Of a stretch of DNA of 64,000 nucleotides, positions 25,206 through 62,314 are shown piece by piece. The stretch is from Ruminococcus sp. GTDB lineage: Bacteria; Bacillota; Clostridia; Oscillospirales; Acutalibacteraceae. The notes beneath the pieces are model-generated. The model searched no databases. It saw only the letters and a program-made list of their open reading frames with translations, and was not told the origin of the DNA. Positions within the stretch are counted from its first letter, which is position 1, and each line of letters starts with the position of its first letter. The stretch covers positions 2,837-66,836 of the forward strand of contig JAMPDR010000002.1 of assembly GCA_023665555.1 (NCBI GenBank), in the 5' to 3' direction. Made by a program: the position numbers and the translations under genes.

Positions 25206-26948
25206 TTATAATTCTTCAAACGGATTGCCGTGTTTCATGGCATATTTATGAGCGCGTGAACCTTTAGGCGCAATGATTGTTGCTGTTTCAGGAATTCCAA
25301 TTCGTTTGACATTTAAGTCCCGATTGTATATTTTTATACGTTTCAAGCCCAATCCTTCAAAAAATGTATCTTTAGCAATAGTTGTAACACTAGCAGGGAT
25401 GATTATTTCTTTGAGGAGTGGACAACCCCAAAATGCCCATTTTTCAATAGTTGTAACATTGTCAGATATTTTTATGCTTGCAAGATTATAACAACCATTG
25501 AATGCAGACTCACGAATACTTGTAACGCCATTAGGTATGTTTATGCTTGTAAGACTTTGACAATTAAAAAATACAACTTTACCGATACTTGTAACACCAT
25601 TAGGTATGTTTATACTTGTGAGGCTTTGACAATTAAAAAATGCAAAATCGCCTATATTAGTAACGCTATCAGGCATGTTTATATTTATAAGATCAGTGCA
25701 ATCAGCAAATACTAAACTCTCAATACTAGTAACGTTATCAGGTATGTTTATACTTGTAAGGCTATTACAACCATTAAATGCAGACTCACCGATACTTGTA
25801 ACGCTATTAGGAATATTAATACTTTTAAGACTGGTGCATTTTTGAAATGCATGCCCGCCAATAACTGCAATGCTATCAGGGAGAGATACGCTGACAAGAT
25901 TACTACATTCACTAAAAGCGGAAGCACCGATACTTCCTACACCAAAATCGATTGTAACTTTTTTGATGTGTTGCCGCACATTGCGCCAAGATGGTGTAAC
26001 ATACATCCCACCGCGGCCGGTAATAACAAGTTCACCGTCCTCATAAAGTCCCCATTTAAGATTAGGACCGCAACTGCCTGTAGCGATAATTTTAATGACT
26101 TCTTCTTCAACTGTTTTTGGTGGTTCTTCTTTAGTTTCAGAAGGAGCATTTTCCTTTTCCATAGAAGAAGGTTCAGTGGCTTTCTCTTCCGCTTTATCAA
26201 TAGCAGTATCTTCAACTGAATTTTCAGTTTCTTCGATAATTTTATCAACGACAAAATTAATGATTTCTTCATCAACTATTTTAGGTGGTTCTTCTTTGGT
26301 TTCAGACGGAGCATTTTCCTTTTCTATAGAAGAAGGTTCTGTGAATTTTTCTTCCGTCTTTTCAGTATCGGTATCTTCAATAAGATTTGCAGACTCGTTA
26401 ATATTTTTATCAGTGACAAAATCAGTGATTTCTTCAACAACTTTCTTGTTATCAAGATTATCTTTCAGTTCAATTTTACTGTTAATATCATTTTTAATAG
26501 CATTTTCATCCTTTTTCGGCTCTGTAGTATCTTCCTTTTCAGTTACACCGGTATAAGCAATAACAGCCTGTAAAATCTTTCTGATTTCATCCGATGATTC
26601 ATCAACTTCACGCACTGGGATAATTTGCTTGTTGTGAATGTAAAAGAAAAATGAATCATTCAGCATGACATCTTCAAGCTGAACCGTTATTATTGATTTT
26701 CTGAAAGTGAGAGCAGCAAGTTCAACTTCGCTGTCAACGGCCTCTGATTCTTGGGAATCATTAGTCAACAATAAGACAAAGCAACTGCACTCTCTTATTG
26801 CTTTGGTGATAACAGCGGCATATTTATTTCCTGCGGGTATATCATACGGCGCCATCCATGTGTCAATTTTATTCTTTATAAATAGATTTCTTATAGCATC
26901 TGCCGATGCCTGATTCTTCGTACTGTAACTTATAAATGCATATCCCAT
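25206..26948 (-). CDS. TIR-domain protein fused to a K/E-rich repeat linker and a BspA-type leucine-rich-repeat (LRR_5-like) array. No signal peptide.
   Basis: N-terminus MGYAFISYSTKNQ...W...CFVLLLTNDSQES...EL fits the bacterial TIR pattern. C-terminal half contains GSCGPNLKWGLYEDGELVITG followed by at least 8 repeats of IP(D/N)(S/G)VTSIG(E/D)xAFxxCxSLTSINIP. Confidence 0.8.
   Translation of the reverse strand: MGYAFISYSTKNQASADAIRNLFIKNKIDTWMAPYDIPAGNKYAAVITKAIRECSCFVLLLTNDSQESEAVDSEVELAALTFRKSIITVQLEDVMLNDSFFFYIHNKQIIPVREVDESSDEIRKILQAVIAYTGVTEKEDTTEPKKDENAIKNDINSKIELKDNLDNKKVVEEITDFVTDKNINESANLIEDTDTEKTEEKFTEPSSIEKENAPSETKEEPPKIVDEEIINFVVDKIIEETENSVEDTAIDKAEEKATEPSSMEKENAPSETKEEPPKTVEEEVIKIIATGSCGPNLKWGLYEDGELVITGRGGMYVTPSWRNVRQHIKKVTIDFGVGSIGASAFSECSNLVSVSLPDSIAVIGGHAFQKCTSLKSINIPNSVTSIGESAFNGCNSLTSINIPDNVTSIESLVFADCTDLININMPDSVTNIGDFAFFNCQSLTSINIPNGVTSIGKVVFFNCQSLTSINIPNGVTSIRESAFNGCYNLASIKISDNVTTIEKWAFWGCPLLKEIIIPASVTTIAKDTFFEGLGLKRIKIYNRDLNVKRIGIPETATIIAPKGSRAHKYAMKHGNPFEEL
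26098..26460. repeat. Tandem duplication of about 180 bp (two copies) inside the TIR-LRR linker
   Basis: Near-identical DNA blocks encoding TEPSS(I/M)EKENAPSETKEEPPK(I/T)V(D/E)EE. Confidence 0.75.
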
Positions 26949-35899: not shown

Positions 35900-35984
35900 T
35901 GGTGCGAGAGACGGGACTTGAACCCGTACGAGTCGCCCCACACGCCCCTCAAACGTGCGCGTCTGCCGATTCCGCCACTCTCGC
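35900..35984 (-). tRNA. tRNA-Leu (anticodon GAG), CCA encoded
   Basis: Reverse complement folds as acceptor GCGAGAG/CTCTCGC. Anticodon stem CACGT/GCGTG, loop TTGAGGG. Long variable arm. T-arm GGGTTCAAGTCCC. Confidence 0.85.
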
Positions 35985-36207
35985 ATATTTAACTTGTTCT
36001 CACAAGTGCTTATATACTATATCACTATTTTCGTTTGTTGTCAATAGTTTTTTGAAGTTTTTTCCAGTTTTTTCCACCTTATTTTGCGCCGCAGTAGACA
36101 AAGAAAAGAGATTACGAAAAACAAGAAATGGTATGGTGTATTTGCAACGAAAAGACGACAAATGCTGAAATCGTAGCAGTTCTCTGCCGAAATCCGTTGC
36201 TATTTGG

Positions 36208-36225
36208 CACATAATGTGGTATAAT
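36208..36225 (+). promoter_or_regulatory. Candidate C-box operator overlapping an extended -10 promoter upstream of the C gene
   Basis: 11-bp palindrome CACATAATGTG immediately followed by TGGTATAAT (TGnTATAAT). Confidence 0.45.
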
Positions 36226-36277
36226 GCGGATTAGTGATATAATGTACTTATTATAACTATTTATGAGGTATAATAAA

Positions 36278-36496
36278 ATGGCCGCAAGCTATAAAAAATT
36301 GTTCAAGCTTCTGATCGACCGTGACATGAAAAAGAAAGAACTCGCCGAAAAAGCTGGTATCAGTATTGCTACCATTACTAAAATGGGCAAGGACGGCGCC
36401 GCTGTCAGCAGTGATATTTTTGTAAAAATATGTACAGCGCTCGGATGCGCAATGGACGATATTGTGGAAATCATACCCGAGAAGGAGGAAAACTGA
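36278..36496 (+). CDS. HTH (XRE/Cro-type) controller protein of the R-M system
   Basis: MAASYKKLFKLLIDRDMKKKELAEKAGISIATITKMGKDG is an HTH domain. GAGG ribosome-binding site 9 nt upstream. Located directly upstream of the MTase. Confidence 0.7.
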   Translation: MAASYKKLFKLLIDRDMKKKELAEKAGISIATITKMGKDGAAVSSDIFVKICTALGCAMDDIVEIIPEKEEN

Positions 36497-36497
36497 A

Positions 36498-37565
36498 ATG
36501 AAAACATTTAAGTTAGGCGAATTGTTCTGCGGTCCCGGTGGAATTGCGTGTGGTGCACTGCGGGCAAAAAGCGATGATGGTTCCTTCACCATTGAGCATG
36601 CTTGGGCGAATGATTATGATGCAGACACATGTGAAACATATCGCAAGAACATCTGCCCCGAATCGCCCGAAACAGTACATTGTGGCGATGTGCGTGAATT
36701 AGATATTCAGAAGCTTGGAAAAATCACGGCCTTCTGCTATGGGTTTCCGTGCAACAGCTTCTCTAATGTTGGTAAACACCAAGGTTTTGAAAACGAGAAG
36801 TTTGGGCAACTCTACTGGTACGGTATCGAAGTGCTTAAAACATATCGCCCAAAGTGGTTTGTTGCAGAAAATGTATCAGGAATACGTTCTGCTGGTTCAG
36901 GTGATTTTGAAATAATCCTAAACGATATGCGAGCGGCTGGTTATAAATTGAACGTTCACCTATACAAAGCGGAAGAATATGGTGTTCCGCAAACAAGACA
37001 TAGAGTAATCATTGTTGGAATTCACGAGGATGAATCTGTGAAATACAGAGTTCCCGATCCTGCGGTGTATGCTAAGTGCGATGTAACCGCGAGAACCGCG
37101 TTGGCTAACATTCCTGATAATGCTCCCAACAATGAAGTAAGAAAACTCGCTGATAAGGTTGTTAGAAGACTGTCATATATTAAGCCCGGTGAAAATGTAT
37201 GGCAAGCAGAAGAAAGACTCGGTGAAGATTTCCCAGGCGAATTAAAAATCCATACAAAAACCAAGATCAGTCAAATCTATCGTAAACTTGATCCCGACAA
37301 GCCAGCCTATACTGTAACAGCAGCGGGTGGCGGTGGTACATTTATGTATCATTGGACAGATCGAGAACTGACAAACAGAGAAAGAGCTAGAATACAAACC
37401 TTCCCCGATTACTATGAGTTTGTAGGCAACTATAGCAGTGTGAGAAAACAGATCGGCATGGCTGTACCGTGCAAATTATCTGAAATCGTCATAACTGCTG
37501 TATTGAACGTCTTTGCAGGAATTGATTATCCTTGGATTAAAGCCAACTTGGAGGAAGATGAATGA
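36498..37565 (+). CDS. DNA (cytosine-5)-methyltransferase 1
   Basis: Motif I FCGPGG, motif IV GFPCNSFS, motif VI FVAENV, motif X RKQIGMAVP. GGAGG ribosome-binding site. Confidence 0.85.
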   Translation: MKTFKLGELFCGPGGIACGALRAKSDDGSFTIEHAWANDYDADTCETYRKNICPESPETVHCGDVRELDIQKLGKITAFCYGFPCNSFSNVGKHQGFENEKFGQLYWYGIEVLKTYRPKWFVAENVSGIRSAGSGDFEIILNDMRAAGYKLNVHLYKAEEYGVPQTRHRVIIVGIHEDESVKYRVPDPAVYAKCDVTARTALANIPDNAPNNEVRKLADKVVRRLSYIKPGENVWQAEERLGEDFPGELKIHTKTKISQIYRKLDPDKPAYTVTAAGGGGTFMYHWTDRELTNRERARIQTFPDYYEFVGNYSSVRKQIGMAVPCKLSEIVITAVLNVFAGIDYPWIKANLEEDE

Positions 37566-38641
37566 TTCCAAAAATTGATAAGATTACTGGAAATCCGACT
37601 TTTATTACGTCGGATTTCGATGAACCTGTTTTATATACGCCTGCGAGAACTGAGTTTTCGCAACCTTGTTCGTCTTTGAAGATTGTTACTGCTTTTACAG
37701 ATTGTGATCGAATATCGACGCATATGATCAAACTTGCGGAAGGCATGAAAAACAGCCGTCTGATTAAAGGTCTGTCGGTTGAAATCATACTTGGCATGAC
37801 CAAATCCAGCCTCTCTCAGAAAAAGCACGAAGATATCTGTCGTATGATTCGATTTCTTAATGCATCCAAAGGGATGCCAAAAATCTCTTGCAGATATATT
37901 TGCCAAGGTTCAGAAGTGCATTCGAAAGTGTATATTTGGACATCTCCAGATGAGCGTGTAGGAGATATGCCCTATATCGCTTTCTGTGGTTCTTTGAATT
38001 ATACTATGAACGCTTTTTACAAGCGCAGAGAGTCTGTCAGCATGTGTAACTCTCTTGAGGCGTATTGGTATTATAAGAATCTTCTGCCCGATACAATTGA
38101 TTGTTTTGATCCTTCAGTTTCTGAAAAATTGAAGAATGTTATCAACAATACAGCAGAAAATTTTGTTGAGCCAGATAACTCTGAAAAAGATTATCTCGTT
38201 TACGATAAGGAAACGCCAGTCGATACGCTCAATGTTTCTCTTTTGCGAGCGGACGGCAGTGATACAGGATACGGCTCGGGTATCAACTGGGGCATCCGTA
38301 AAAATGGAACGAAGCGCGATCAGAACCAAGCCTATATTCCGTATAATCATAAAGATAAAAAGGCAGGCTTTTTCCCAGATAGAGAGCATCCCGATGATGA
38401 AAACTGCCCGATGTTTAAGGTCATCACCAAAGATTTTGGCTCTTTCCATATGCGAATGGCACAGCAAGGCAACAAAGCTTTGCACAGCGTAGAAAGTAAC
38501 GCAATTTTGGGTGAATGGATTCGTAAAAGAATTGGTGCGCCTGCAGGCGGTTATGTTACTAAACAAATGCTGGAACTGTACGGAAAAACGTATGTTACTT
38601 TCAGAAAATATGATGATGGAACATATCTTTTGGATTTTTAA
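37562..38641 (+). CDS. Candidate restriction endonuclease (called by position only)
   Basis: 359-aa ORF translationally coupled to MTase 1 (ATGA overlap) and sandwiched between two m5C MTases. No motif recognisable by eye. Confidence 0.4.
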   Translation: MIPKIDKITGNPTFITSDFDEPVLYTPARTEFSQPCSSLKIVTAFTDCDRISTHMIKLAEGMKNSRLIKGLSVEIILGMTKSSLSQKKHEDICRMIRFLNASKGMPKISCRYICQGSEVHSKVYIWTSPDERVGDMPYIAFCGSLNYTMNAFYKRRESVSMCNSLEAYWYYKNLLPDTIDCFDPSVSEKLKNVINNTAENFVEPDNSEKDYLVYDKETPVDTLNVSLLRADGSDTGYGSGINWGIRKNGTKRDQNQAYIPYNHKDKKAGFFPDREHPDDENCPMFKVITKDFGSFHMRMAQQGNKALHSVESNAILGEWIRKRIGAPAGGYVTKQMLELYGKTYVTFRKYDDGTYLLDF

Positions 38642-38662
38642 TCTTTGAATGGGGGACAAGTT

Positions 38663-39604
38663 ATGCCGAGTGTATGTAGTTTGTTTAGCGGAATAGGTGG
38701 AATCGATCTTGGTTTTATACAAGCTGGATTCGACATCGCATGGGCAAATGAAATAGATGTCGCCGCTTGCAGAACCTATCGTCATAATTTTCCAAACGCC
38801 AATCTTATTGAAGGCGATATAAAGAGGATTTCAACTTCTGATATTCCAGACTTTGATGTGTTGACGGCAGGCTTTCCTTGCCAACCGTTTTCCATTGCAG
38901 GACTTCAAAAAGGATTTGAAGACCGAGACGGGAACTTGTTTTTTGAAATAACGAGAGTTATTGACGCTAAAAGACCGAAAGTGGTTTTCTTGGAAAATGT
39001 TCCGAACTTAATGGAACATAATGACGGCAAAACTTTTCTTGTAATATTCAACAGTTTAGCACAGTTTGGATACACCGTGTATTATAGAGTTCTTGCATCC
39101 AATGATTACGGTAATCTCCCGCAAATACGAAAGCGTATTTATATCGTTGCAATTCGTGAAGATATGGGCAATCGTCTATACCAATATCCAGAGCCGATAG
39201 AACTCACTTTGAAATCCAGTGACATTATCAATCGCTCTGCAAAGCAACACGACATTTATTACTACACAGAAGGCAAAATGTATGATCGATTAGTTGCACA
39301 CATGAAGGATCACAAAGCAATTTATAGAATAACTGACACAGAAGTACGCTGGACGAAGAATCAAATGTGTCCGACTCTTACCGCCAATATGGGAACACAC
39401 AAAGATAGAGTGCATGTTGTGTGGGACGATTACGGAATACGAAAGATTACATTGAGAGAAGGTCTGGACTTTCAAGGTTTTCCGAAAGAGTTTTATTTTC
39501 CGAATACAATAACTATTGATGATGCGTATAAGCAGATCGGAAACTCTGTTTGTGTACCTGTTATTAAAAGAATAGCGACTGAAATAAGGGAATTAGTAAC
39601 GTGA
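38663..39604 (+). CDS. DNA (cytosine-5)-methyltransferase 2
   Basis: Motif I LFSGIGG, motif IV GFPCQPFSIAG, motif VI VVFLENVPNL, motif X KQIGNSVCVP. An alternative ATG at 38645 is possible. Confidence 0.85.
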   Translation: MPSVCSLFSGIGGIDLGFIQAGFDIAWANEIDVAACRTYRHNFPNANLIEGDIKRISTSDIPDFDVLTAGFPCQPFSIAGLQKGFEDRDGNLFFEITRVIDAKRPKVVFLENVPNLMEHNDGKTFLVIFNSLAQFGYTVYYRVLASNDYGNLPQIRKRIYIVAIREDMGNRLYQYPEPIELTLKSSDIINRSAKQHDIYYYTEGKMYDRLVAHMKDHKAIYRITDTEVRWTKNQMCPTLTANMGTHKDRVHVVWDDYGIRKITLREGLDFQGFPKEFYFPNTITIDDAYKQIGNSVCVPVIKRIATEIRELVT

Positions 39605-39800: not shown

Positions 39801-40205
39801 AATATCGAGCGGAGGGGATACTTCATAAAGGGATACATATTCACGGATAGAGTTTGCCGCATCACTGATGGAAACAAGCGCTGACCGATAGCTGTCTCTG
39901 ATCTGCCCGTCCTGATTCCAATACAATTTATTCTTTTTGCCTGCAATGCCGAGTGGGATTCCGTTTGCAAATATATGAAGCTTTCCGCTTTCATCGTCCA
40001 TTTGCCCCGTGCAATGGAATTTGGGCAACTGCCGTAGTAACTCGCGCTGATAAATTGTCATTTTCTTTTTCCTTTCAGATTTTAATATTTTATCGGTAAA
40101 CGGATGCTTTACGATGATGGGACTGTGCGGAGTTGTTTCTATATCCAGAGTCAAAAATGTTTGCATCAATTCTTTTATGCCTAGCATATCGGTTTGTTTT
40201 TTCAT
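39732..40205 (-). CDS. Hypothetical protein X-prime, paralogous to 42213..42968 over its first 40 codons
   Basis: Shares FLTLDIETTPHSPIIVKHPFTD and about 110 bp of coding DNA plus about 200 bp of upstream leader with gene X, then diverges. The 3' end overlaps the vsr remnant and may be fortuitous. Confidence 0.4.
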   Translation of the reverse strand: MKKQTDMLGIKELMQTFLTLDIETTPHSPIIVKHPFTDKILKSERKKKMTIYQRELLRQLPKFHCTGQMDDESGKLHIFANGIPLGIAGKKNKLYWNQDGQIRDSYRSALVSISDAANSIREYVSLYEVSPPLDIVGLPEYRRLSEYFIYILSVSQT

Positions 40206-40428
40206 TCTGTCAGCTCCTTTCGGGCAATAAAAAAGACAGATAGATTTTTACTTCTATCTGCCTGATTTGGTTGATATTCTGTTGTCGTGAGAGTTCGAAA
40301 TATTCCGGAAAGAGAAAATAGCTTTTTATCTACGGAATTAACTCTCGAAAAAAATGTCGTCTAAAACGACAAAACCCCCGATAAAATCGAGGGTTTCGGA
40401 GACAACAAAGATATGTCTCTTGATGTCT
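40040..40428. repeat. Imperfect direct repeat, left copy (gene 5' end plus hairpin-rich leader)
   Basis: About 80-90% identical to 42780..43166 by eye, including the hairpins GCAGATAGA...TCTATCTGC and GCCCCGAT..ATCGGGGC and a terminal TGTCTCTTGATG. Confidence 0.65.
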
Positions 40429-40535: not shown

Positions 40536-41264
40536 TTAGTTGAGAGGTTCAGTTACTTCAAGTCCGCCGACGAATACCACCTTTATCGTTTCTTTGGATT
40601 CTACGATTACGCATTCAAGTATCTGTCGGATGATTTGGTTGTCATAAGTCATCGGATGATTTTTCAGTCCGTCGAGTATGGTATAAATCTCATCGAGCCG
40701 GGACTTTGCATTTTCACGCTTTTGTCTGGAAGCGCCGATTTGTTCAAGCTGTCCGAGCAGCTTGTTTTTTTCGTTCATAAGTTCTGTTGCTTTGCTATCG
40801 TCGAAGGTATCGGCCGCCTGTGCGGATACCGCTTGCAGCATGGCTTTGAATTCTGCGTCGATCTCAGCGATCCGTATTTGTATGTCGAGACTTTTATCCT
40901 CTGTTTCTTCGGTGTCAAGTCCCATACCGATGTGCAGTTTAAGAGTTTTCAGCACCTCGGTGTTTTGCTTGCATTTCTTGATCATCTTGTTGAATTCATC
41001 GCGCTTTTTGATGCTTGTTCCGGTGATTCCCTTATCGGCATAGATTCCGACCAGCGTCCATTTCGGTTCGCTTTGAATTCGCTCGGTGTAGTGCTTGACC
41101 TGTACTTCGTAGCTGTTAAGCTGTTCTTCCTGCTTGGTGGACATGCGGCAGTAAGCCGCTACCCGAAGCTGTCGGTATTCTTTCTTTAGCTGCTTGGCTG
41201 TGTCAATAGTCGGCTGTATTTTGCGTACTATTTTCGCAGGCTGTTGTACTGCTGTTGATTCCAT
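40536..41264 (-). pseudogene. Large serine recombinase remnant (catalytic-domain N-terminus joined to coiled-coil/C-terminal tail, internal deletion)
   Basis: [22 protein letters not shown]...YADKGITG is the resolvase catalytic N-terminus. It then jumps to a coiled-coil and a typical tail ...[26 protein letters not shown]. The rest of the catalytic domain and the recombinase domain are missing. Confidence 0.6.
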
Positions 41265-42117
41265 CGCTTTGCTCCTTTCCGATTTGCTGACCGTTTGTTA
41301 ATGTAAGGATAACCGAGCCGTTCTCGCAGAGCCGAAGCTCGCTGACGGTTCTGCCGAATAGCTCGCCTGAAAAATCGGAAAGCGGACTCGCATTTGCAAA
41401 GTCCGCTTTCAATCGCTTGGCTATATACACTGCATTGTCAATGTTCTCATATTTGAGAGAGACACTCTGCAGCAGTTGTTTTCTTAATGTTTCCTTTTGG
41501 ATGGAGTAGCCTTCGAGGGTTCTGCCGATCTCGTTATTCATCCTGCGAAGCTCTGTGCTTGGTTCCTGCACTGCGGGATTTGGTATGTGTATTCCTTCAG
41601 ATTCGGCAATGACTCTATTCAGAAGCTCGGTGATCGCTCTGAGCAGTTCTTCATCAGATACGGCAATCAGCTTCCGGCAGTCATCCTTTTTGCAAATCCA
41701 TCGCTGACCGCTTTTAACTCGTCTGTCACTGCGGCGATGCATTTCACTTCCGCAGACAGGGCATCTGACGAGTACGGTGATCTGAAAGATATCCGCTTTC
41801 CGATCTACACTTTTCTGCGTGTTTCGCGCATCTTTGATTTCCTGAACGGCGTCATATGTTTCCTGTGTGATGATTGCAGGATAGGTGTCGTTTCCGAGAT
41901 ACCGTTCATTTTCAAGAATATGCTTGAGCCTCGCTTTGTTCCATCCGATGATGCCGGGCATGAATTCGATGCTTTGTGCGTTGAGTTCGGCTGCGATATT
42001 CAGCAGGGACTTGCCCGATAAGTAGCTGTCGTAAATCTCTGTGACGATTGTCTGCTCCTGCGGTTGAATGGCTATGTTGCCTTTTTCGAAGCAGTATCCG
42101 TATGGCAGGTTCTTCAC
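41203..42117 (-). pseudogene. Large serine recombinase remnant (recombinase domain, zinc ribbon, coiled-coil and tail; no catalytic domain). GTG start.
   Basis: PYGYCFEKGNIAIQPQEQ...GKSL..IA..LN recombinase domain. RCPVCGSEMHRR...WICKKDDC zinc ribbon. C-terminal tail ...[16 protein letters not shown]. Upstream, in another frame, lies an excisionase-like HTH start MEYISVSEASEQWNVTKRWVQRLCEE (42187). Confidence 0.6.
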
Positions 42118-42212: not shown

Positions 42213-42968
42213 TTACGATGATTTCTGCACCTTCCTTGCTTGCTCCTGATATTCGGTTATATTCATCAAATACTTCGGATCGACAACGATTTCCGATTCG
42301 TTTCTGCCGTTGAACAGAGCATAGATATGAGCTTTTTCAATCTGCGCCTCATAGACCGTCCCGTCCTCATCGAATCTCTTTGCAAACCACTCGGCGGTGT
42401 CGGGATTCAGCGTCCATGACAGAGCCTTCACATTGTCTGCGTTATATGAGGTAATGCCTCTGTAGACGGTCAGCGTATCATCCAAACCCTGAAACTGCTT
42501 GTATTCGTCCTCATCCATAAGACTGGCGGGATCAGCTTGCCGGAAAAGACGAACAAATTCTGCCGTCGTAAAATTCGGATCGTTGTGCGGCGCTTCTGTC
42601 TCCGTCCATACATCCGAGAGAATTTCGGAAAAGTCTTTCTGCGACAGATACGGCTCGGCATATTTCAGAAAGACCATTCGGTATGGTTTTGTGAGAAACA
42701 TAAAAATGTGATGCGGAGCAGTACATTTGCTGATGTAAGTTTTCATCTGTTCTCGCCATCGGAGCAGGGCATTTTCATCTTCCAACAGATTCGACGAGTA
42801 ATCTTTGCCTTTAAATCCTACGAACACCGTATCCGTAAACGGATGCTTTACGATAATGGGACTGTGCGGAGTTGTTTCTATATCCAAAGTCAAAAAGTTT
42901 GCGCCAATTCTTTTATGCTTAACATATCGGTTTGCGCTTTCATTTGACCACATCCTTTCGTGCAACAA
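42213..42968 (-). CDS. Hypothetical protein X (251 aa)
   Basis: Contains LDIETTPHSPII, which loosely resembles a DEDD exonuclease Exo-I motif. Its start is frame-shifted relative to the paralogue by a 1-nt indel. Confidence 0.5.
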   Translation of the reverse strand: MLHERMWSNESANRYVKHKRIGANFLTLDIETTPHSPIIVKHPFTDTVFVGFKGKDYSSNLLEDENALLRWREQMKTYISKCTAPHHIFMFLTKPYRMVFLKYAEPYLSQKDFSEILSDVWTETEAPHNDPNFTTAEFVRLFRQADPASLMDEDEYKQFQGLDDTLTVYRGITSYNADNVKALSWTLNPDTAEWFAKRFDEDGTVYEAQIEKAHIYALFNGRNESEIVVDPKYLMNITEYQEQARKVQKSS

Positions 42969-43166
42969 AAAAGCAGATAGATTTTTTCTTCTATCTGCCT
43001 GTTCTTGCTGTTATTCTGTTTTCGTGAGAGTTCAAACCATTCCGCAAAGGGAAAATAGCCTTTTTATATCTACGGAATTGACTCTTGAAAAAATGCCGCC
43101 TAAAACGGCGAAAGCCCCGATTTTATCGGGGCTTTCGGGGACAATATCTTTTTTATTGTCTCTTGA
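42780..43166. repeat. Imperfect direct repeat, right copy, abutting tRNA-Pro
   Basis: See the left copy. It ends immediately before the tRNA-Pro 3' end at 43167. Confidence 0.65.
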
Positions 43167-43243
43167 TGGTCGAGGCGACAGGACTTGAACCTGCGGCATC
43201 TTGCTCCCAAAGCAAGCACTCTACCAAACTGAGCTACGCCTCG
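43167..43243 (-). tRNA. tRNA-Pro (anticodon TGG), CCA encoded
   Basis: Reverse complement CGAGGCGTAGCTCAGTTTGGTAGAGTGCTTGCTTTGGGAGCAAG...GGTTCAAGTCCTGTCGCCTCGACCA. Anticodon loop TTTGGGA. Confidence 0.9.
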
Positions 43244-61060: not shown

Positions 61061-62314
61061 TTATCCGTGCCATGCGTTGCCGAGTGCCTTTATAAAAGCA
61101 GATTCTTTCATTCCAATCGGTTCAATGATGTTTATATTCATATCTTTTGCTCTTTGTCTGAGATATTTCGCGGCATCATTAAATCCGAGAGCAGAGGCAA
61201 CCAAAATCTTTTTTGCATACTTTCCGCCGAATCTGTTGGCAACAGTGTTGAGTTTATAGAGTTCCTCCATTTTGATTTCCCCATTTTTACATGAAACAAA
61301 AACAGGAACCAGATTGTGCATCATCATTACGTCGATCTCATTTTCGGTATCATAGCCGCCATCATCGGTGTGGATTTCCCCGTCCCAATCAATATAAACG
61401 CCTGTCATAACATCGCTGTACACAGCATTGCCGTTTTTATCCGTTGCAGCCAACGCTCGAAGGTATACGATTAATTCAAGAACCTGCCCTGCTTTTGTCA
61501 GACATTTTTTCACTTGCGGATTTTTATATTCTATAGACAATGTTGTTTCATTTTCGTTAACATATGCCAATCCGTATTTTGCAAGCTGATTGATAATGTT
61601 GTGAATATACACATATGGCTTCTTTTCTTTGAGATTTTTCAAGTTCTCTTTCAATTCTTTCAGAGGTGCAACTGTAGTCAGGTCGTTGTCATCACAGCAA
61701 TATGCTTCTGCAACTTCAAAAACGTTTATTTGGGTGTTCCATGCTCCGGGATTTGTTCCGCTGCAAATGATTTCCCACATGGTTTCGACATCTCGCTTGA
61801 AACTATCCGTTAATATCCAACCATATGTTCCGTTTTCTTTTGTATCCTCAAAAACAACATCACCGCCGAAAGCTTTTATATTTTCAACAACGCTGAGATT
61901 CATCTCAGGTGAGGACAATATTTTATTTCCGTCCCCATCGCAGTCCAGCAGTGTATTGTTGCCGATGTTGAATCTGTGCATTTGTATGTTTTTTTCGGGA
62001 TATTTTTCAAAAACGATTCCCATTGCAACAAGGCATAAGTCTTCACCTCCGGTTAAATCAAAGCAACATTCGCTTTCAGTTTCAACAATTTTGCTTAATA
62101 CCGAAACCAAGTCCGACAGACTGTTTTTGTTGACCAACATAGGAATGAAATCAATCTCCGCACCCTTGCCCAAGAAAAGATTATGATAGCGCTCTGCATG
62201 GACATTCAGCTGTTTTCCGTTGTTCCCCAACAGATAAACCTTGTCAGGAGATGCCGCAATAGACGAGCATATGTTTTCAATCGCATCGTTGTCAAAAAAT
62301 TCAATATAAACCAT
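61061..62314 (-). CDS. Hypothetical protein, possibly a CARF-like Rossmann domain plus a PD-(D/E)xK-like nuclease (DUF1887/Card1-like, tentative)
   Basis: 417 aa. N-terminal DLTGGEDLCLVAMG loop resembles the CARF ligand loop. C-terminal D...ENEIDVMMMH...VFVSCKNG resembles a restriction-endonuclease-fold motif. Confidence 0.3.
   Translation of the reverse strand: MVYIEFFDNDAIENICSSIAASPDKVYLLGNNGKQLNVHAERYHNLFLGKGAEIDFIPMLVNKNSLSDLVSVLSKIVETESECCFDLTGGEDLCLVAMGIVFEKYPEKNIQMHRFNIGNNTLLDCDGDGNKILSSPEMNLSVVENIKAFGGDVVFEDTKENGTYGWILTDSFKRDVETMWEIICSGTNPGAWNTQINVFEVAEAYCCDDNDLTTVAPLKELKENLKNLKEKKPYVYIHNIINQLAKYGLAYVNENETTLSIEYKNPQVKKCLTKAGQVLELIVYLRALAATDKNGNAVYSDVMTGVYIDWDGEIHTDDGGYDTENEIDVMMMHNLVPVFVSCKNGEIKMEELYKLNTVANRFGGKYAKKILVASALGFNDAAKYLRQRAKDMNINIIEPIGMKESAFIKALGNAWHG

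Follow-up and report, generated by a model that had tools for sequence, protein, structure and literature searches.

A probable mobile Type II-like restriction-modification cassette of the NgoFVII/NgoAVII/CglI family with an apparently optional second m5C methyltransferase in Ruminococcus sp.

Where two genes for 5-methylcytosine (m5C) methyltransferases enclose a third reading frame, the question arises which of the two methylases protects the host, what the enclosed gene encodes and how its product would act on DNA. Such an arrangement is found in a 64,000-nucleotide stretch of a Ruminococcus sp. genome (assembly GCA_023665555.1, contig JAMPDR010000002.1, positions 2,837 to 66,836 of the forward strand), which was analysed as a whole and is called the window here. 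An original prediction, made from the DNA sequence alone, had proposed an operon under the control of a C protein, in which a possibly new type of restriction endonuclease is flanked by two methylases, each modifying one strand of its target. Based on our data, the region is probably a mobile Type II-like restriction-modification (R-M) cassette of the NgoFVII/NgoAVII/CglI family. The middle gene encodes the nuclease (R), the first methylase (M1) is assigned as its cognate partner and the second methylase (M2) as an accessory enzyme of one sub-clade, because of the M1-R synteny, the distribution of M2 and the homology of the variable region of M1. No gene for the ATPase subunit that characterised members of this family need was detected nearby.

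The cassette comprises the following genes, and the small regulator gene in front, the two different m5C methyltransferases, the nuclease between them and the common plus-strand orientation of all four open reading frames (ORFs) bear out the R-M operon as originally described:

36278-36496, plus strand: helix-turn-helix (HTH) regulator gene, 72 amino acids (aa), start at the ATG behind a GAGG ribosome-binding site
36498-37565, plus strand: M1, m5C methyltransferase, 355 aa
37562-38641, plus strand: R, the middle ORF, NgoFVII-family nuclease, 359 aa
38663-39604, plus strand: M2, second m5C methyltransferase, 313 aa, ATG behind GGGGGA
39606 to ~39785, plus strand: truncated vsr remnant, placed by a Pfam Vsr match and a Vsr alignment

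An alternative reading of the HTH gene would begin at 36263 and give 77 aa; the gene calls of the relatives are also for 72 aa. The tight packing of the genes was correctly recognised, but the ATGA coupling that had been ascribed to the whole operon is confined to the M1/R junction (37562-37565), whereas the other junctions have gaps of 1 nt (HTH/M1), 21 nt (R/M2) and 1 nt (M2/vsr). For the comparative analysis we used a main set of 34 genome loci with an encoded R 63-97% identical to that of the window, together with metagenome loci; individual loci are given by their numbers (L001 and so on). Ruminococcus intestinalis NSJ-71 and Pseudobutyrivibrio ruminis CF1b are examples of complete genomes with a member of the clade. 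Against close relatives, all four genes are under purifying selection, with ratios of nonsynonymous to synonymous substitution (dN/dS) of 0.03 for M1 and R, 0.04-0.05 for HTH and 0.05-0.09 for M2.

The middle ORF, in which no recognisable motif had been noticed, turned out to have the domains and motifs of a described nuclease family. It matches the Pfam families RE_NgoFVII (PF09565, the phospholipase D (PLD) nuclease domain, E 7.7e-21) and RE_NgoFVII_C (PF20731, a B3-like DNA-binding domain, E 1.5e-21), and it carries the catalytic motifs HxK (H120, K122) and GSxN (G143, S144, N146), whose five residues are invariant in every intact R orthologue aligned. A broader alignment (A1) of the window R with 45 representatives at 28-47% identity, comprising 325 positions, also has G143, H120 and K122 among its near-invariant positions (at least 90%). 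A single-sequence phmmer search of R against the PDB gave no match and a profile was needed: the profile built from A1 detected R.NgoAVII (4rct, E 4.6e-21) over profile positions 18-322 of 325, which corresponds to full-length homology. In agreement, an AlphaFold2 model of R (mean pLDDT 89.9) retrieved with Foldseek 4rct (E 1.8e-13), BfiI (2c1l, E 2.8e-9) and the NgoAVII B3-DNA structure (4rd5, TM 0.71, E 7e-7), followed by PLD nucleases of the Nuc, NucT and Zucchini type. R thus shares with NgoAVII and CglI the PLD HxK plus B3-like architecture, the Pfam families and full-length profile homology, although it is only ~15-29% identical to R.NgoAVII. With BfiI and BmrI it has the fold and the domain order in common, but no detectable sequence similarity, as the A1 profile left BfiI unmatched at E <= 1 and R therefore stands outside the BfiI/BmrI group by sequence. 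The companion methylases of BfiI are reportedly N4-cytosine enzymes and not m5C methylases.

A word-indexed search yielded 492 homologues, of which the best 120 are 74-96% identical and mostly derive from gut and rumen metagenomes, and an exhaustive search of representatives at 50% identity gave 626 matches at E <= 1e-3. Those close homologues that bear a name are called "NgoFVII family restriction endonuclease" at NCBI. Taken with the Pfam assignments, the profile match to 4rct and the fold search, this places R in the NgoFVII/NgoAVII family and refutes the idea of a new endonuclease family; no match to a non-nuclease family arose, the family found being one of nucleases. The expectation of a nuclease with an asymmetric site agrees well with this assignment, since CglI and NgoAVII recognise the asymmetric sequence GCCGC and cut beside it at N7/6-7, and BfiI, a Type IIS enzyme, likewise cuts beside an asymmetric site (PMC4267653, PMC5737866). 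The PLD domains of R should dimerise and form one metal-independent HxK active site. Each B3-like domain should read the site, and the cut would fall a few bases beside it, on one side.

For the protection of the host, the cassette would rely on M1. The two methylases were rightly described as distinct: both match PF00145 over their full length (E 2e-70 for M1, 7.7e-87 for M2), are 26% identical to each other in the core motifs only and differ in their variable regions. In 33 of the 34 genome loci, the gene immediately before R is an orthologue of M1, and M-R pairs, sometimes followed by Vsr, also occur in more distant clades, among them a complete 14-kb plasmid of Bacillus cytotoxicus with M and R only. 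The methylases beside the R genes of other clades are 48-59% identical to M1. To include the characterised system, we rebuilt the sequence of R.NgoAVII from a printed alignment and used it to retrieve Neisseria loci, which have the order M (374 aa), R (345 aa) and Z1-ATPase (628-629 aa). As in NgoAVII, the window has an m5C methylase with a homologous variable region directly upstream of R: over 347 residues, M1 and the NgoAVII-type methylase of Neisseria are 37% identical, with clear homology through the variable target-recognition region, whereas M2 matches this methylase in the conserved core motifs only (32%). Judged from the synteny in 33 of 34 loci, its recurrence in other clades and in Neisseria, and this variable-region homology, M1 is the cognate methylase of R. 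Since M.CglI and M.NgoAVII each cover both strands as a single methylase with the specificity GCSGC (PMC4267653), M1 probably also modifies both strands of a short asymmetric site alone.

A different arrangement was seen in a clade at 49% identity, where an NgoFVII-family R has no adjacent methylase of its own (L047, 2264-7068). Here, R is placed after a block of HTH_26, m5C methylase, a protein with a FokI cleavage domain and Vsr, so that two different nucleases possibly share one methylase.

Compared with NgoAVII and CglI, the window cassette adds the HTH regulator, the second methylase and the vsr remnant, and it is the distribution of M2 that separates it from M1. Among the 32 informative loci (2 of the 34 had too little sequence and were left out), M2 lies directly downstream of R in 14 and is absent in 18. 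All 18 loci without M2 carry the R gene, and L019, one of these 18, is the only locus of either group whose R is not intact; the R of all others retains the catalytic residues. On a neighbour-joining tree of R, M2 is essentially restricted to one clade (R at least 81% identical) with L035 as the one outlier; L014, L018 and L045 appear to have lost M2 secondarily, and L014 still keeps 95 nt of its 5' end. The M2-less loci include close relatives with an R identity of 87-93%. Identity of M1 to the window amounts to 78-98% in loci with M2 and 74-85% in loci without, which we judged to be the same. The dN/dS of M2 shows purifying selection and therefore implies that M2 does something. In its core, M2 resembles M.HhaI (E 2.5e-50), but recognition loop 1 of HhaI is absent, so that the target of M2 cannot be read off M.HhaI. 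From this pattern, M2 appears to be an accessory m5C methyltransferase that was acquired by one sub-clade and is optional; co-transcribed downstream of R, it could contribute a second specificity or extra protection. In L019, an M2-less relative, a premature stop within R (1742-2818) leaves a product of 339 aa, which may represent an inactivated nuclease.

Downstream of M2, the original prediction had overlooked the truncated vsr gene. The remnant covers only positions 1-52 of the 74 positions of the Pfam Vsr profile, and in comparison to the full-length 145-aa Vsr of L001 the homology ends at residue 60 (GKPAV vs GKPDI); a full-length Vsr domain with the catalytic region past the GKPD motif is not present, and the open frame continues to 39884 through unrelated sequence. 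The remnant abuts a minus-strand ORF and a region of ~270-nt direct repeats (40091-40353 and 42830-43093); vsr was probably cut off at ~39785 by a later rearrangement. What follows M2 differs between the relatives: a full-length Vsr in L001-L004 and L025, and instead of vsr a 211-aa PD-(D/E)XK protein in the closest relatives (L005-L013, L021), with a marginal match to PDDEXK_5 (E 7e-6 and 1e-4). Genes for such proteins of 210-211 aa are located at 3687-4322 in L010, 12053-12685 in L005 and 12056-12691 in L013. The protein also shows a weak match to the homing endonuclease I-Ssp6803I (2ost) and may act either as a further small nuclease that belongs with M2 or as an analogue of Vsr. In the M2-less loci L032, L033, L046 and L052, Vsr directly follows R and is thus not specific to M2.

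How R would cut DNA is closely linked to the ATPase. CglI and NgoAVII are two-subunit, NTP-dependent enzymes, and R.CglI and R.NgoAVII by themselves leave DNA uncut (PMC4267653, PMC4267654, PMC5737866). BceSIV of Bacillus cereus, a GCWGC system in which a PLD nuclease from this family is paired with an m5C methylase, likewise requires an ATPase subunit and NTP hydrolysis according to the account given in a later paper (PMC4267653, citing Xu et al. 2012). The ATPase gene of CglI immediately follows R (PMC4267653), and the same was true for the 628-629-aa Z1 protein in the Neisseria loci we looked up. Unlike the R2H2 enzymes NgoAVII and CglI, the window cassette has no adjacent DEAD-Z1 ATPase, and the ATPase subunit of BceSIV has no linked counterpart in it either. 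When two Neisseria Z1 ATPases served as tblastn queries, neither the 64-kb window nor any of the related loci retrieved gave a match at E <= 1, and the sole output was three short alignments at chance level (E 2.4-3.8). In more than 40 related loci, the DNA within ~10 kb of R contained no Z1/DEAD homologue, no annotated Z1 stood beside R in the neighbourhood tables of the loci looked up, and the large ORFs of the window encode unrelated proteins and not an ATPase partner.

With regard to its mode of action, R would consequently be comparable to BfiI, which has no ATPase partner and cleaves autonomously and free of metal ions (PMC4081073). Autonomous cutting seems the most economical assumption, because the cassette moves as HTH/M1/R, with or without M2, R is strongly constrained and its fold is that of BfiI.

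In addition, we asked which site R might recognise. R285 of NgoAVII makes a bidentate contact to the central G and sets the orientation of the site (PMC4267654). In the profile alignment, this residue corresponds to a His of the window R, which lies in a KALH motif conserved in the clade and further distinguishes it from R.NgoAVII. Owing to this His, GCCGC is unlikely as the site of R, which is probably a different one. GCCGC was found at an observed/expected ratio (O/E) of 1.01-1.02 in the window and its relatives, with no GCCGC depletion in the Neisseria control either. In 447 kb of pooled related loci (L001-L046), GCAGC/GCTGC is the most under-represented 5-mer with 392 observed versus 671 expected occurrences (O/E 0.58), a value that has to be read together with the negative outcome of the Neisseria positive control, a mild depletion in other clades and the lack of an R-free Clostridia control. 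The sequence is low in all 13 of 13 M2-bearing loci (0.33-0.66), at 0.71 in the window and variable in M2-less loci. This depletion around the cassette gives a weak hint of a site similar to that of BceSIV; it could reflect the target of R or of M2, or common GCWGC systems in the hosts. As the site of R, GCAGC/GCWGC is a weak lead, and we doubt it more than we believe it.

Other sites are avoided across the window as well, namely GTCTC/GAGAC (O/E 0.16), CTGCAG (0.24), CTAG (0.24), GGCC (0.33), GAGCT (0.34), GATC (0.54) and CCGG (0.57). Since the avoidance of GTCTC is not common to the relatives, whose loci have an O/E of 0.85, the host probably possesses, or once possessed, further R-M systems, for instance of the BsmAI/Alw26I type. 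For GACGC, the HgaI site that had been noted in an element family at 62.6 kb, the window shows no depletion (O/E 0.98).

These data have to be weighed against other explanations for M2. In the HgaI-like Type IIS arrangement that had been suggested, the two strands of an asymmetric site would be divided between M1 and M2, and protection against R would require both enzymes. It has in its favour that, as in HgaI-like systems, two m5C methylases with unrelated variable regions adjoin R, that the R family reads asymmetric sites (PMC4267653), that M2 follows R after only 21 nt and is under purifying selection, and that it has been kept with R through most of one clade. Unlike in those systems, however, the two methylases are not both obligatorily co-inherited with R: M1-R alone is the conserved unit, it occurs without M2 in more than half of the informative loci, including close relatives of the window, M1 is equally conserved in both situations, and the precedent within the family is the single methylase for both strands described above. 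It is the absence of M2 from 18 of 32 loci that weakens the notion of one methylase per strand, and with the HgaI analogy lacking sequence support we regard this explanation as unlikely. Alternatively, M2 could belong to a separate module docked behind M1-R, either as an orphan methylase/repair pair with Vsr or as a second, small R-M system with the 211-aa PD-(D/E)XK protein, which would make it an orphan methylase in the window. The genes that follow M2 in L001-L004 and L025 on the one hand, and in L005-L013 and L021 on the other, are in line with such modules. The identities in L013 also fit, where M2 (85%) is out of step with M1 (98%) and R (97%), which suggests mosaic exchange. In contrast, ~10 loci have M2 after R with neither Vsr nor the PD-(D/E)XK gene, the PDDEXK_5 match is marginal and Vsr also occurs directly after R where M2 is missing. 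We consider a docked module conceivable, with the evidence leaning somewhat to the other side, and keep to M2 as an accessory enzyme of the M1-R cassette.

The autonomy of R is the second matter under debate, as R may depend on a helicase-like ATPase encoded elsewhere in the genome, in the way CglI, NgoAVII and BceSIV need their partners. The argument for an unlinked subunit is that the characterised members are all ATP-dependent two-subunit enzymes with an R that is inactive alone (PMC4267653, PMC4267654, PMC5737866). On the other hand, Z1/DEAD genes are missing from the window and from the surroundings of R in all loci covered, only HTH/M1/R(/M2) is transferred when the cassette moves between unrelated genomic contexts, the complete 14-kb plasmid has M and R alone, and the ATPase gene adjoins R both in the Neisseria loci and in CglI (PMC4267653). 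Dependence on an ATPase from a distant locus therefore seems improbable to us. Several points nevertheless weigh against an autonomous R with an optional M2. Autonomy runs counter to the precedent of every characterised family member, and the ATPase search covers 64 kb and the related loci, so that a partner gene at an unlinked genomic position is possible. Moreover, the short distance between R and M2 and the strong selective constraint on the latter could also be explained by a functional need for M2 within the sub-clade. Finally, many of the loci are metagenome bins, and an intact R beside a missing M2 is no proof of R activity.

Besides the enzymes, our data allow insights into the control of the operon. 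The features upstream of the HTH gene are:

36197-36225, plus strand: sigma-70-type promoter, TTGCTA-17 nt-TATAAT with an extended -10 (TGn), promoter score 10/12 with TG
36208-36218, no strand assigned: palindrome CACATAATGTG within the 17-nt promoter spacer, the C-box of the original prediction
36163-36194, plus strand: candidate operator, direct repeat TGCTGAAATC / TGCCGAAATC with 22-nt spacing, directly upstream of the -35

The -35 TTG and the -10 element are kept across the aligned upstream regions of 11 relatives that carry the same HTH gene (alignment A2), and this single promoter would drive HTH, M1, R and M2. The palindrome is indeed present at the extended -10, but a role as C-box or operator is not supported: there are 88 equivalent 5+1+5 palindromes across the window, the probability that a 160-nt region contains one or more palindromes with 5-bp arms and a loop of 0-3 nt by chance is ~58%, and CACATAATGTG is not kept in the relatives, where in the 11 aligned upstream regions only its right arm TGTG recurs. 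This arm is presumably the -16/extended -10 element that is common in Gram-positive promoters. A better operator candidate is the repeat block upstream of the -35, which is likely to serve this function. The block at 36160-36199, which abuts the -35, is conserved in the 11 regions with the consensus GAAAT-N6-ATTTC-N5-GAAAA; in the window, an imperfect inverted repeat GAAAT-N6-AGTTC lies inside the candidate operator (36167-36182), and two of the three occurrences of the motif TGCYGAAATC in 64 kb are found at this position.

The 72-aa protein is an HTH regulator of the Xre/Cro type (Pfam HTH_26, E 1e-15, also labelled HTH_3), and an orthologue of the same length is found at the same position in the relatives. 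Its best NCBIfam match is VanU (E 1e-19, below the VanU cut-off) and its best PDB match is 3tyr (E 6e-15), a transcriptional regulator; the other PDB matches at E <= 0.1, 3f51 (ClgR), 3mlf and 4ghj, were all deposited as transcriptional regulators too, and no solved or named classical C protein was among the matches up to this threshold. Hence, a small HTH gene does head the operon as proposed, but its identity as a classical C protein is not supported. Like the systems of C.PvuII, C.AhdI and C.Esp1396I, the cassette begins with a small gene for an Xre-type HTH protein and has a conserved repeat block beside the -35, whereas its HTH protein is VanU-like, has no match to a solved C protein and precedes a methylase and not the nuclease. 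Several sister loci have no separate HTH gene; there, M1 instead carries an HTH_17 domain as an N-terminal fusion. We take this fusion to be closer to the autoregulating N-terminal HTH of M.SsoII or M.EcoRII. It points to autoregulation of a methylase-first operon and not to the classical arrangement with C before R. In the window, the HTH protein probably autoregulates the operon via the repeat block upstream of the -35.

A tRNA-Leu(GAG) gene (35900-35984, minus strand) lies upstream of the cassette, and downstream follows a region with a rearranged recombinase. DNA homology between the window and the relatives is limited to ~36147-39595, and the flanks of the window are common to none of the related loci compared. 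As the homology is confined to the cassette and the flanks are never common, the cassette evidently moves between genomic contexts. No att-like repeat of the tRNA end that bounds the cassette was found at the island borders. In the relatives, the contexts are often integrase-bearing defence islands: several have a Gabija-like pair after the cassette, others SIR2, reverse-transcriptase-like or Type I HsdR-like genes. Since these downstream neighbours are defence genes, the cassette sits in defence islands. The Gabija-like pair consists of an OLD-like TOPRIM ATPase and a UvrD-type helicase and is located 3' of the cassette at 10494-13614 in L001 and at 12104-15854 in L017.

On the far side of the vsr remnant, the two direct repeats (40091-40353 and 42830-43093) are 80-96% identical and ~2738 nt apart, each comprising the promoter together with the initial ~38 codons of an ORF that begins ...FLTLDIETTPHSPIIVKHPFTD. 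Between the repeats lie out-of-order pieces of a serine recombinase (40536-42117, minus strand), with an ORF for the Recombinase and Zn-ribbon domains (41203-42117) upstream of one for the Resolvase N-domain (40536-41264). This region, next to a tRNA-Pro gene (43167-43243), looks like a decayed or rearranged integrative element.

Further features of the window lie apart from the cassette. A single giant ORF of 8344 aa (50-25084, plus strand) occupies 39% of the window. It is followed on the minus strand (25206-26948) by the gene for a 580-aa protein that combines a TIR domain at the N-terminus with BspA-type leucine-rich repeats (TIR_2 1e-14, LRR_5 3e-64), has weak PADLOC matches to SAVED_TIR/ThsB and is a possible defence or signalling protein. 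At 61061-62314, also on the minus strand, a 417-aa CARF plus PD-(D/E)XK protein of the Card1/Csx1-like type is encoded (PADLOC CARF4--CARF_PDDEXK 1e-27, Pfam Card1_endonuc).

In summary, the locus contains a new, uncharacterised member of an already annotated family, and the finding is largely ordinary, because the middle gene belongs to a described family, M1 is its regular partner and M2 an optional extra. As found, it amounts to the routine annotation of an NgoFVII-family R-M cassette on a mobile island of a gut Firmicute. A general caution can be drawn from the comparative data, namely that two methylases flanking a nuclease need not mean strand-specific modification. The residual interest lies in the specificity and in the existence of a whole ATPase-less clade in a family that is known only as ATP-dependent. 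It is conceivable, though we would not yet count on it, that the large clade from gut Clostridia represents a naturally occurring group of Type IIS enzymes that resemble BfiI and need no ATPase, with a new specificity, possibly GCAGC/GCWGC; in the sub-clade with M2, this methylase may provide strand-specific or overlapping protection. If R cuts alone, it would help to explain why BfiI is autonomous and R.NgoAVII is not, and it might serve as a new reagent of Type IIS. If the clade is indeed independent of ATPase, its comparison with R.NgoAVII would show what makes a PLD-B3 nuclease autonomous, a question left open by the NgoAVII structure paper.

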